Of a DNA stretch of 35,115 nt, positions 32,466 to 34,808 are shown one piece after another (within the stretch, counting starts at the first letter, position 1; every line of letters begins with the position of its first letter). The notes beneath the pieces were generated by a model. The model saw only the letters and a program-made list of their open reading frames with translations, ran no database searches and was not told the origin of the DNA. Source of the DNA: Escherichia coli (GTDB lineage Bacteria; Pseudomonadota; Gammaproteobacteria; Enterobacterales; Enterobacteriaceae). The translations under genes were made by a program, and so were the position numbers. The stretch is from NCBI RefSeq assembly GCF_003334765.1, contig NZ_QOWT01000038.1; one strand, written 5' to 3'.

Positions 32466-33848
32466 TCAACCTGCCACACTCCCCCACACCAGTTGCCCTT
32501 TATGGAACGTTGCGGTTCTCGGCGAGATACGCGCCACCGCCTCGGCGGAACAGGAGGCGTCCACCAGCACAAAGCTGGCGTCATCCTGCGCTTTTGGCCA
32601 TACACGCTCGCCTTTTTCATTCAGCGGCAATACATCGCCAGTGGCTAAAAACAGCGAGCGGGAGAGGTTCTGTTCGTTAGGACGAATATAGAGCTGCGCG
32701 TACAGATTGGCTTTTTCCAGCATGTCGCCCAGACCATAAGGCGACCAGTGGTCGATAACGCTGTCAGTGCCAGTCATCACTTTTACGCCTTTGTCGTGCA
32801 ACTGTTTGAGCGGCATATGCAGCGTGCCAATCGGCACCGTCGAGGCGATAGAAATTTGTTGCACCACCATCCGGTTCGCCAGTTCATCTACCTGTTGCTC
32901 GTTGAGCGTTGCCAGCGCAAAGGCGTGACTGATGGTCAGCTTGCCCTTCAGCTGTGGCGTTTTCTCTACCGTTTCAACCATATAATTGATGGCTGCCACG
33001 CCTGCCGGAGTGGTTTCGTGCAGGTGAATATCGACGCCTTTGTCGTAGTCCAGCGCAATCTGGAACATGGTGTCGAGGGATTTTTCCATCGCGCCATCAA
33101 CACTGGTCGGGTCCAGGCCGCCGACGTAATGCGCCCCCGCCTGCATCGCTTCACGCATTAAAGGTTCAGATTTCGACAGCAGCAAACCGTGCTGCGGGAA
33201 GGCGACGATTTCACACTCAAAGCCCGCCTGACGTCGCGCCAGCACCGCCTGCAAATTTTGCAGATTTTTCAGGCCGGAAACCGGTTCGATATTGCAGTGG
33301 CTGCGGGCAATGGTGGTGCCTTTCGACTGCAATAAATCAATCAGTTTTTCTGCCCGCTCCTGAGTGTACGGTTGCAGTTCCGGCAGCATTTTCTGCTCGA
33401 GTTTGATCATGTCCTGGATGGTGGTGCCTGCCGGACGATTGAGCGAGCGCCACGGCCCGCCGTAAAAGGTTTTGTCGAGATGAATATGCATGTCGCGGGT
33501 GGTGGGCAGCATCAGCTTACCGCCAGCGTCATAGTGCGGCAGCGTGGCGTCCGGATGCAGCTTGTTCTCGCGCAGGGCGACAATTTTGCCGTCCTGAATC
33601 TCCACGGTCTGGCGCGCCGTGCGGGTCTGCACCGCCACGCCATTTTCGTAGTCAAAACCGGTTTCCAGCAGCACGTTATCGAGATAGTAATGCGGGTCAG
33701 TGATTTTCATGGTGTTGTTCGCTTCGCAGTTTAGGGTGCCAGCTACCGCCGCATGGGCGAGCGGCACAGAGGTACCAAACAGCGCGGCGGCGGTGACCAT
33801 CTTACCGCTCTGGCTCAGAAATTCACGGCGGCTATTGCTTTCTTTCAT
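32466..33848 (-). CDS. yahJ: Tat-signal metal-dependent amidohydrolase (cytosine-deaminase-like)
   Basis: 460-aa ORF; N-terminus SRREFLSQSGKMVTAAALFGTSVPLAHAA is a twin-arginine signal; HIHLD metal-binding motif resembles the CodA PHIHLD. Confidence 0.88.
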   Translation of the reverse strand: MKESNSRREFLSQSGKMVTAAALFGTSVPLAHAAVAGTLNCEANNTMKITDPHYYLDNVLLETGFDYENGVAVQTRTARQTVEIQDGKIVALRENKLHPDATLPHYDAGGKLMLPTTRDMHIHLDKTFYGGPWRSLNRPAGTTIQDMIKLEQKMLPELQPYTQERAEKLIDLLQSKGTTIARSHCNIEPVSGLKNLQNLQAVLARRQAGFECEIVAFPQHGLLLSKSEPLMREAMQAGAHYVGGLDPTSVDGAMEKSLDTMFQIALDYDKGVDIHLHETTPAGVAAINYMVETVEKTPQLKGKLTISHAFALATLNEQQVDELANRMVVQQISIASTVPIGTLHMPLKQLHDKGVKVMTGTDSVIDHWSPYGLGDMLEKANLYAQLYIRPNEQNLSRSLFLATGDVLPLNEKGERVWPKAQDDASFVLVDASCSAEAVARISPRTATFHKGQLVWGSVAG

Positions 33849-33857
33849 CTTACGTCC

Positions 33858-34808
33858 TTACGTTTTAATAATATGAGTGCCCGTTTCGCCGCGCAGCGCC
33901 GCAGGCAGGCATTCCGGCGTGGTGATAATCACTTCTTTGCCGCCTTGTTCTAAAAATGTCAGGCTGGCGATGATTTTTGGCAACATGCTGCCGGGCGGGA
34001 AATGCCCTTCCTGCATATAGCGGGTCATGGTGGCAATATCCACCCGATCGAGCGCCTGCTGCTGCGGTTTGCCAAAGTGAATACACACTTTTTCGACGCC
34101 AGTGGTGATCACAAGAATGTCGGCGTGAATTTCACGGGCCAGCAGCGCGGTAGAGAGATCTTTGTCGATAACCGCGTCCACGCTTTGGTAATCTCCCGCG
34201 TCAGTACGCACTACCGGAATTCCACCGCCGCCCGCGCCAATTACGACAAAACCTTGTTGGATCAGCGCTTTAATGGCAGGTGCTTCGACAATACGTTTCG
34301 GTTCCGGCGAGGCGACCACGCGGCGATAGCCCCGCCCGGCATCTTCAACAAAACACCAGTCAGGGTTTGCCTTTTGTAATTCGTCACGCTGGCTGTCACT
34401 AAAGAATGCGCCGATGGGCTTGGTGGGATGGGCAAAACCTGGATCGTTTTTATCCACTTCCACCTGAGTCACCACGGTGACGGCTTTCTTCTCGCCGTGA
34501 CGCGCCAGCCGGTTATTCAGCGCCTGTTGGATCAGATAGCCGATGCCGCCCTGCGTATCTGCCACACAGTTCGCCAGCGGCGTTAAGGGCAGCCCTTCGC
34601 GCTTGTGGGCAATCTCCGCACGGCGTAAATCCAGCCCGACCTGCGGCCCGTTGCCGTGGGTCAGCACAATGTCGTAATCGGAAGCCAGCATTTCCAGCAC
34701 CGTATCGGCGACGGCTTTCACCGCCTCCGCCTGATGCTCAATCGACTGGCTGGCGTTATCTTTGATAATGCTGTTGCCACCAATGGCAACGACCACAAGC
34801 TCTTTCAT
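33858..34808 (-). CDS. yahI: carbamate kinase-like protein
   Basis: 316-aa ORF MKELVVVAIGGNSI... with the amino-acid-kinase-fold N-terminus typical of carbamate kinases; 9-nt gap to yahJ suggests co-transcription. Confidence 0.9.
   Translation of the reverse strand: MKELVVVAIGGNSIIKDNASQSIEHQAEAVKAVADTVLEMLASDYDIVLTHGNGPQVGLDLRRAEIAHKREGLPLTPLANCVADTQGGIGYLIQQALNNRLARHGEKKAVTVVTQVEVDKNDPGFAHPTKPIGAFFSDSQRDELQKANPDWCFVEDAGRGYRRVVASPEPKRIVEAPAIKALIQQGFVVIGAGGGGIPVVRTDAGDYQSVDAVIDKDLSTALLAREIHADILVITTGVEKVCIHFGKPQQQALDRVDIATMTRYMQEGHFPPGSMLPKIIASLTFLEQGGKEVIITTPECLPAALRGETGTHIIKT

Follow-up and report, generated by a model that had tools for sequence, protein, structure and literature searches.

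The genes yahI and yahJ, which lie at positions 32,466 to 34,808 of a 35,115-nucleotide stretch of Escherichia coli DNA (contig NZ_QOWT01000038.1; hereafter the window), encode a carbamate kinase and a metal-dependent amidohydrolase. We propose, at a probability of roughly 0.55, that they belong to a single catabolic unit running from yahD to yahJ, a sister of the allFGHK genes of the allantoin-oxamate branch, in which deamination by YahJ would feed the phosphorolysis of an acyl-urea with formation of ATP. The gene identities, the intact catalytic residues, the paralogy, the conserved synteny, the conserved twin-arginine translocation (Tat) motif of YahJ, and purifying selection are established. 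Neither gene is new, both being annotated already; the novelty lies in the picture of the system as a whole. The features concerned, in window coordinates, are as follows.

33858..34808, minus strand: yahI, an open reading frame (ORF) of 316 amino acids encoding a carbamate kinase of the PRK12352 subfamily.
32466..33848, minus strand: yahJ, an ORF of 460 amino acids encoding a mononuclear-metal amidohydrolase with a predicted Tat signal, family PRK06846.
33849..33857, minus strand: the 9-nucleotide yahI-yahJ spacer; the AAGGA ribosome-binding site at 33855-33859 overlaps the yahI stop.
33750..33848, minus strand: the predicted Tat signal coding region of yahJ (residues 1-33, MKESNSRREFLSQSGKMVTAAALFGTSVPLAHA), with the SRREFL codons at 33816-33833.
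33474..33488, minus strand: the yahJ codons H121-I-H123-L-D125, containing the HxH metal ligands of strand β1.
34858..35115, no strand assigned: an array of repetitive extragenic palindromes (REP; bacterial interspersed mosaic element, BIME) with a 93-nucleotide period and three copies, located between yahG and yahI and running past the window end.
17613..18911, minus strand: codA, in the same window, which also encodes HIHLD.

An earlier note on this DNA, made from the sequence alone, had placed yahJ 9 nucleotides after yahI, and both ORFs and the spacer were found exactly there. As read from the sequence, the yahI stop codon TAA occupies 33858-33860 and the AAGGA Shine-Dalgarno element lies 6 nucleotides before the yahJ ATG. 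The region is E. coli chromosome, annotated with yahI ("carbamate kinase family protein") and yahJ ("amidohydrolase family protein"). Of 5426 complete genomes, 5036 contain at least 80% of the yahI-yahJ region, and about 7% lack most of it. In a complete E. coli record the genes follow one another on a single strand in the order yahD (ankyrin), yahE (DUF2877), yahF (FdrA-like), yahG (DUF1116), "yahH", yahI, and yahJ, with yahC and yahB (LysR) divergent from yahD. The annotation of this record shows no arginine deiminase or ornithine transcarbamylase genes near yahI and no allD, allC, or allE near the yah cluster.

The statement in the earlier note that yahE, yahF, and yahG are paralogues of the fdrA, ylbE, and ylbF genes proved correct by pairwise BLAST: YahF and AllF (FdrA) share 38% identity (E 2e-99), YahG and AllG (YlbE) 45% (E 4e-119), and YahE and AllH (YlbF) 25% (E 3e-9), while the two kinases, YahI and AllK, share 38%. 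The paralogy extends to the regulators, which that note did not name; the best family match of YahB is AllS, at 39% identity (E 9e-73). AllFGH is the experimentally defined oxamic transcarbamylase and AllK a catabolic carbamate kinase (PMC11326118, PMC9843812); AllH is required for AllFGH activity (PMC11326118), and allFGHK is activated by AllS (PMC12535856). The yah genes go unmentioned in these papers on AllFGH, AllK, and AllS (PMC11326118, PMC9843812, PMC12535856), and YahB appears in the literature only within lists of uncharacterised LysR factors. The two systems share a paralogue for each component, a kinase downstream of the three transferase genes, and a divergent LysR regulator. They differ in gene order (E-F-G-I in Yah, F-G-H-K in All), and Yah has further conserved components, namely an ankyrin protein, a permease of the UraA fold, and an amidohydrolase predicted to be exported. 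The combination of FdrA-like, DUF1116, DUF2877, and carbamate kinase genes on one strand is present in E. coli and conserved in 38 complete loci of other species.

The Yah genes are nevertheless distinct from the All genes. The F, G, and kinase proteins of a Brevibacillus cluster are 66, 78, and 58% identical to YahF, YahG, and YahI, and only 36, 48, and 35% identical to AllF, AllG, and AllK; being closer to Yah than to All, they indicate an orthologous system separate from the latter. By sequence comparison, then, Yah-type genes are a system of their own, found from Brevibacillus to Enterobacterales and usually accompanied by the ankyrin protein YahD and a UraA-fold permease of 515 amino acids. 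Since the Yah-type F and G proteins form a separate clade, no allD lies nearby, and the system has extra parts, its substrate is probably not oxalurate.

YahI has the residues of a working carbamate kinase. It scored 649 bits against NCBIfam NF009007 (PRK12352; cut-off 266) and matched Pfam AA_kinase (PF00696, E 5e-23), and its score against the arcC equivalog TIGR00746 (346.2 bits) fell narrowly under the cut-off of 358.25. Among solved structures it gave 282 bits over residues 3-314 with the Pyrococcus furiosus enzyme (1e19) and 248 bits with that of Enterococcus faecalis (1b7b), and it aligned end to end with the solved carbamate kinases of P. furiosus, E. faecalis, and Giardia, including the protruding subdomain. 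The residue set tested (Gly11, the Asn-Gly oxyanion hole, Lys128, Lys209, Asp210, and Lys271 in E. faecalis numbering), whose roles in carbamoyl phosphate and nucleotide binding come from the Giardia and E. faecalis structures (PMC3659122), is kept in full in YahI as G10-G11, N53-G54, K130, K216, D217, and K278. The sole change among the binding residues is at the adenine-stacking position, where Tyr238 of E. faecalis is replaced by Phe245. The description of YahI as carbamate kinase-like, which the loss of catalytic residues on alignment would have overturned, therefore holds; on these residues YahI is an intact carbamate kinase, predicted to form ATP. It resembles the catabolic enzymes (ArcC of E. 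faecalis and the P. furiosus and Giardia kinases) in its full-length alignment and in its catalytic and substrate-binding residues; it differs from the ArcC type in belonging to the distinct subfamily PRK12352 and in its neighbours, ArcC-type kinases being tied to arginine deiminase and ornithine transcarbamylase, and YahI to AllFGH-like genes.

YahJ scored 713 bits against NCBIfam NF005312 (PRK06846; cut-off 447) and also matched Pfam Amidohydro_3/1. The PRK06846 match begins at residue 49, so the family profile does not include the N-terminal extension. By sequence, its solved relatives rank as the AtzC-like protein 6nbo (152 bits), AtzC (108), and CodA (63-75), and a fold search with a YahJ model returned the same ranking, with 6nbo and AtzC first and CodA later. 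In a 23-member alignment of the YahJ family, H121, H123, K126, Q219, D246, H275, H277, H308, D362, and W368 are invariant or nearly so. They include a subtype III metal site (the HxH pair H121 and H123, H275, and D362) and the β6 histidine H308, which align with the AtzC zinc ligands H60, H62, H217, and D303 and with its essential H249 (AtzC structure, PMC4577212). Six of seven AtzC pocket residues are kept, K65, Q160, D188, H219, and W309 as YahJ K126, Q219, D246, H277, and W368, together with H249; the seventh, N304, is Ser363. Overall identity to AtzC is only about 29%. AtzC and TrzC, the N-isopropylammelide and ammelide aminohydrolases, are thus the best solved relatives of YahJ by sequence and fold, with the same subtype III metal site, but YahJ stands in PRK06846, separate from the AtzC-like PRK05985 group, and carries a Tat signal that AtzC lacks. 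Enzymes of the CodA/AtzC cluster act on N=C(X)-N-C=O systems, in which they displace an amino or alkylamino substituent (PMC12828455). From its residues, YahJ is a competent-looking subtype III amidohydrolase of this cluster, neither CodA nor AtzC, with a predicted activity of this kind.

Some E. coli strains carry in-frame yahJ deletions of 29-46 residues or a frameshifted patch (proteins P0013, P0012, P0034, and P0016). These alleles remove either the β4 strand AFPQHG, with the conserved Gln219, or the β5 segment DIHLHE, with the metal ligand His275, and are probably loss-of-function alleles.

The earlier note had seen in YahJ a metal-dependent amidohydrolase with a CodA-like HIHLD motif. 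The motif is there, at residues 121-125; the likeness to CodA gave way to a closer one to AtzC, by bit score and by fold. This bears on a different account of the two genes, in which YahJ would be a second cytosine deaminase for pyrimidine salvage and YahI an arginine-deiminase-type or anabolic kinase, the two being mutually unrelated. YahJ and CodA do share 26% identity, the fold, the metal ligands, HIHLD, the polarising glutamine (Q156 of CodA, Q219 of YahJ), and, for E. coli YahJ, the H-x-x-E after β5; and in metabolic models yahI appears beside arcC and yqeA as a generic carbamate kinase (PMC3423039). However, YahJ failed the cut-off of every CodA model (NF005748, 101 against 438 bits; NF006685, 81 against 483; NF005759, 67 against 403), CodA D314 (the counterpart of AtzC N304) is replaced by Ser363, and the position of CodA E217 (E278 in YahJ), although glutamate in E. 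coli, varies among E, D, N, and T across the family. On these grounds we rejected a CodA identity for YahJ. Moreover, CodA is cytoplasmic and YahJ predicted to be periplasmic, and an exported enzyme cannot serve cytoplasmic salvage, while the kinase gene has no arginine deiminase or ornithine transcarbamylase genes nearby and is flanked by AllFGH paralogues. We regard this account as highly improbable.

Residues 6-11 of YahJ read SRREFL and are followed by the mildly hydrophobic GKMVTAAALFGTSVPL and by AHA at residues 31-33, an AxA cleavage site. The RR motif (RR-x-F/L-L/I) is kept in 83 of 84 orthologue loci of gamma- and alphaproteobacteria, with diverged flanks, and the same 33-residue YahJ signal is listed as TatP-predicted in a study of extraintestinal pathogenic E. 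coli (PMC7549933). The clear twin-arginine signal noted earlier is thus borne out, and YahJ is predicted to be exported by the Tat pathway. AtzC is a tetramer with one zinc per subunit according to the literature on atrazine enzymes, and YahJ may plausibly use Tat because it would leave the cytoplasm as an oligomer that is already folded and carries its metal. As a separate observation, Cys40 of YahJ (codon at about 33729-33731), 6-10 residues past the predicted cleavage site, is conserved in enterobacterial YahJ (within NCE, TCG, TCE, or ACE), is absent in Aeromonas and alphaproteobacteria, and does not fit a lipobox.

To place the pair in its genomic setting, one genome per species was scanned, giving 80 loci with a YahJ of at least 59% identity; together with loci fetched earlier and after removal of duplicates, 82 loci were classified by our own ORF/BLAST script. 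The kinase gene lies directly upstream of yahJ on the same strand in 44 of the 82, with yahD, yahF, and yahG present wherever the contig is long enough. Twenty-nine complete loci, in Citrobacter, Enterobacter, Lelliottia, Leclercia, Buttiauxella, Providencia, Proteus, Budvicia, Aeromonas, and others, have the arrangement yahB<->yahD-(yahE)-yahF-yahG-permease-yahI-yahJ, with a permease of 515 amino acids. Nine complete loci, in Escherichia, Pseudocitrobacter, Kluyvera, and C. amalonaticus, are E. coli-like, without the permease and with yahC. The remaining six kinase loci comprise five ended by the contig (including that of a Klebsiella metagenome-assembled genome, E. coli-like as far as read) and one degenerate locus (Leclercia adecarboxylata). 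The order yahG-(permease)-yahI-yahJ does not vary among loci that have both yahJ and the kinase module; over 43 loci the median yahI-yahJ spacer is 12 nucleotides, with at most 23 nucleotides in 33 of them, and yahG and yahI abut in Kluyvera. As a side observation, yahE, where present, is far less conserved than yahF and yahG (35-64% against 76-98%).

Substitution rates tell of constraint on both genes. The ratio of nonsynonymous to synonymous substitution (dN/dS) between E. coli and E. albertii is 0.030 for yahI and 0.049 for yahJ, and the corresponding values are 0.058 and 0.045 against Citrobacter, 0.083 and 0.064 against Kluyvera, and 0.106 and 0.101 against Enterobacter. Both genes are under purifying selection.

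More distant clusters were reached by following homologues of the permease. The Brevibacillus cluster contains PucR, an ankyrin gene, AllH-, AllF-, and AllG-like genes, an allantoin-permease-like NCS1 transporter, the kinase, a 152-amino-acid deaminase of the cytidine deaminase (CDA) fold, and last the permease. The cytoplasmic CDA-fold deaminase thus stands between the kinase and permease genes, where Enterobacterales have yahJ after the kinase, and in standing in for yahJ it supports deamination as the step supplied there. Pasteurella has the full set, including a YahJ with SRRHFL. Bosea has the set with its ankyrin protein in the form of an ankyrin-TPR fusion, and there an AtzC-like amidohydrolase without a signal is encoded on the opposite strand. 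In E. faecalis, an ankyrin lipoprotein and a signal-less enzyme of the YahJ family (36% identity) lie beside PucR, an FdrA-DUF1116 fusion, DUF2877, a kinase, and allD.

A further instance of the pairing came from atrazine catabolic plasmids. A protein search of plasmids with YahG found, on pTC1 of Paenarthrobacter aurescens (11986-14782), a truncated DUF1116 gene and a carbamate kinase gene directly before atzC, the whole lying between insertion sequences. The DUF1116 fragment is 59% identical to YahG residues 304-470 and the kinase 47% identical to YahI. The same block is more than 99% identical on pADP-1 (NC_004956 70201-72807) and on Agrobacterium, Aminobacter, and Arthrobacter plasmids, so that the kinase-atzC block occurs on atrazine plasmids of five genera. 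Like yahJ, atzC directly follows a carbamate kinase gene and a DUF1116 sequence, and the order DUF1116-kinase-amidohydrolase is that of yahG-yahI-yahJ. We found no discussion of the kinase-atzC order in the accessible atrazine-plasmid literature. The arrangement points to mobilisation of atzC from a yah-like cluster and is independent evidence that kinase and hydrolase are paired for a functional reason and not by accident.

In E. coli the interval upstream of yahI is occupied by the REP array. An array at 34845..35115 had been described in the window; its three copies and 93-nucleotide period were recovered, with a start slightly further in, at 34858. The first REP lies 49 nucleotides from the yahI ATG. 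In the complete record (L001 11510-11930) the array fills the 421-bp yahG-yahI gap annotated as "yahH", and Rfam naRNA4, a nucleoid-associated noncoding RNA, reaches its gathering score at window positions 34907-34976 and 35000-35069 on the plus strand, opposite to the yah genes. This is the slot that the 515-amino-acid permease gene occupies in the 29 complete loci of other genera. The yahC gene (DUF1097) occurs only in permease-less genomes, in nine loci against 29, and never together with the permease. The permease itself had no match among Pfam, NCBIfam, or Protein Data Bank sequences, and databases name it a xanthine or AGZA-type permease; its predicted fold resembles SVCT1, BicA, UraA, and SLC26 (TM score 0.45-0.51), consistent with a 7+7 UraA fold. 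With only this superfamily placement from the fold, the label "nucleobase permease" rests on the database names.

The missing permease suggests a reading in which the E. coli copy is a decaying cryptic remnant whose yahI and yahJ persist without a role after permease loss and REP insertion. Its points of support are that E. coli has neither the permease nor a remnant of it and carries the REP array in its slot, that the yahJ deletion alleles of some strains hit the Gln219 or His275 segments, that about 7% of complete genomes lack most of the region, and that the genes still belong to the "y-ome". Decay fits poorly, however, with the dN/dS values, which are 0.03-0.05 in the comparison with E. 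albertii and stay below 0.11 in those with Kluyvera, Citrobacter, and Enterobacter, and with the full-length genes that 5036 of 5426 genomes keep. Escherichia, Pseudocitrobacter, Kluyvera, C. amalonaticus, and the Klebsiella metagenome-assembled genome all have the form with yahC and no permease, which is therefore old and maintained. In addition, a yahJ deletion mutant was slightly outcompeted in mice (competitive index 0.70, p = 0.02; PMC7549933). We consider the remnant reading improbable.

The most constant companion of the yah genes is the YahD-type ankyrin protein, which stands beside YahJ-family genes well outside Enterobacterales:

L076 11429-12103 (Microvirga): ankyrin gene beside a YahJ-family gene.
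L097 2808-3611 (E. faecalis): ankyrin gene beside a YahJ-family gene.

Its predicted compartment varies: the proteins of Enterobacterales and Brevibacillus lack a signal, that of Microvirga has one of the Sec type, and that of E. faecalis has a lipoprotein signal (LLAAC). The solved homologues 5d66 and 3hra carry no function assignment. A YahD-YahJ complex, with hitch-hiking of one protein on the Tat export of the other, was considered and set aside: an AlphaFold2 run on a fusion of mature YahJ, a (GGGGS)6 linker, and YahD, with 17 species-paired rows, gave a predicted TM score (pTM) of 0.48 and a pLDDT of 75.7, which lend it no support, although this was a weak test, without predicted aligned errors or coordinates. 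Hitch-hiking is further weakened because the E. faecalis ankyrin protein is a lipoprotein and the adjacent YahJ-like enzyme has no signal.

Taken together, these findings lead us to the following scheme. The genes yahI and yahJ would be the two distal genes of a single unit, yahD-yahE-yahF-yahG-(REP array)-yahI-yahJ, probably controlled by the divergent AllS-like LysR regulator YahB and transcribed from a yahD promoter through the REP array to yahJ. In favour of such a transcript, the first REP is only 49 nucleotides away from the yahI ATG, and consensus scans of the coding strand between yahD and yahJ, and also beyond yahJ, revealed neither a sigma-70-like promoter nor an intrinsic terminator. 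YahJ would be folded and loaded with metal in the cytoplasm and then exported by Tat. In the periplasm it would work hydrolytically, like AtzC and CodA, on an amino-oxo N-heterocycle of the N=C(NH2)-N-C=O type and release its amino or alkylamino group; the substrate class would be s-triazine-, pyrimidine-, or purine-like. The product would be imported, in most genera by the dedicated UraA-fold permease, which E. coli would have lost, having yahC instead. The imported product, or a breakdown product of it, would be the acyl-urea for YahEFG, an AllH/F/G-like carbamoyltransferase that would convert an N-acyl-urea and phosphate to carbamoyl phosphate, and YahI would then use carbamoyl phosphate and ADP to yield ATP, CO2, and NH3. 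Our inferences here concern the co-transcription of the genes, what each enzyme catalyses, the class of substrate, and how the YahJ product leads to the YahEFG substrate. The earlier note had suggested a parallel route from carbamoyl phosphate to ATP; the synteny across phyla backs such a route, and the pathway as such keeps its conditional standing.

Several observations weigh against this scheme. On the predicted locations, a periplasmic YahJ cannot pass its product directly to cytoplasmic YahEFG and YahI, a compartment mismatch on which the earlier note, also imprecise on the enzyme class, was silent. A comparison of the yah loci found no conserved gene that would open the ring or turn a deaminated ring into an acyclic acyl-urea, and because of this there is a gap between the import and YahEFG steps. 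In the E. coli cluster there is neither a permease gene nor a remnant, and the UraA/SLC26/SVCT fold, itself a prediction, does not separate nucleobase from anion substrates. The consensus scans say little, either way, about whether a transcript boundary lies in the REP array. Thirteen otherwise complete loci (e.g. Enterobacter cloacae and Aeromonas cavernicola) lack yahE between yahD and yahF. The neighbourhoods of distant YahJ relatives without a signal are unrelated: they showed a Bmp ABC transporter or a peptide-type binding protein or were uninformative, and a kinase gene was absent from them. The literature lists YahJ as "Unknown" (PMC7549933), the yah cluster is uncharacterised, and its genes are still in the y-ome. 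Finally, the kinase is absent from 38 of the 82 loci: six are yahB-yahD-yahJ loci (Pragia, Cedecea, Erwinia persicina, Pluralibacter, and two Enterobacter species), three, all in Microvirga, have yahJ followed by the ankyrin gene and no other yah genes, and 29 have no other yah genes within 10 kb. The gene yahJ is thus separable from the kinase module, and the earlier view of yahI and yahJ as one cluster with the upstream genes stands for the tight, conserved junction and order but not for these loci.

These loci raise the possibility of two neighbouring modules, yahB-yahD-yahJ being a self-contained periplasmic deaminase or detoxification system and yahEFG-(permease)-yahI a second one nested between yahD and yahJ, so that the adjacency of yahI and yahJ would reflect shared regulation at most and not a shared pathway. 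Besides the kinase-less loci, this would account for the kinase module without yahJ on plasmids of avian pathogenic E. coli (APEC) and in Brevibacillus, and for the different predicted compartments of YahJ and of YahEFG and YahI. It would not account for the invariant yahG-(permease)-yahI-yahJ order whenever both are present, with its spacer of about 12 nucleotides, for the recurrence of the kinase-then-amidohydrolase order with the distant relative atzC, for a deaminase of another fold inside the Brevibacillus cluster, or for the ankyrin gene and AllS-like regulator common to both module types. We judge two modules unlikely, though a serious contender, and favour the single unit.

Other contexts of these genes deserve mention. 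In Rahnella inusitata (L086 7598-8752), a gene for HpxO, the FAD-dependent urate hydroxylase (645 bits, above the cut-off), adjoins a LysR gene and yahJ, which is a direct link of a stand-alone yahJ to purine catabolism. A group of Serratia species has an isochorismatase-family hydrolase gene after yahJ. A second copy of the cluster, about 90% identical, is found on about 68 large conjugative plasmids of E. coli and comprises LysR, ankyrin, DUF2877, FdrA, DUF1116, a permease of 516 amino acids, and the kinase; on the one APEC plasmid inspected (NZ_CP126929 9031-17464) the cluster is ended by insertion sequence elements and yahJ is missing. According to PMC3349570, the tkt1 island of APEC O1 includes a third set of yahEFG-like genes together with an isochorismatase hydrolase. 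Within the 376-bp gap between yahJ and yahK, the RefSeq annotation has a 75-nucleotide "hypothetical protein" pseudogene fragment (window 32176-32250; record L001 8877-8951).

A bolder version of the single-unit proposal, speculative and on balance rather unlikely as a whole, is that the Yah cluster is a widespread, horizontally mobile pathway that gains ATP from a natural amino-oxo aza-heterocycle, with YahEFG a new acyl-urea phosphorylase, and that it was the ancestral home of atzC, which atrazine-degradation plasmids would have captured along with the adjacent carbamate kinase gene. The substrate might then be, for instance, an ammelide- or 5-azacytosine-like triazine or a product of oxidised purines, with YahEFG perhaps acting on biuret or a related carbamoyl-amide.

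If the proposal is true, E. coli and many gut and soil bacteria would have a second, unrecognised way of gaining ATP and ammonia from a nitrogen-rich ring compound, reusing the unusual carbamoyltransferase of three subunits for which oxalurate was recognised as the substrate only in 2024. Six or seven genes would leave the E. coli y-ome, and two widespread DUF families would gain a function in a new setting. The proposal would also account for the routing of a simple hydrolase through Tat and would point to a natural origin of AtzC.

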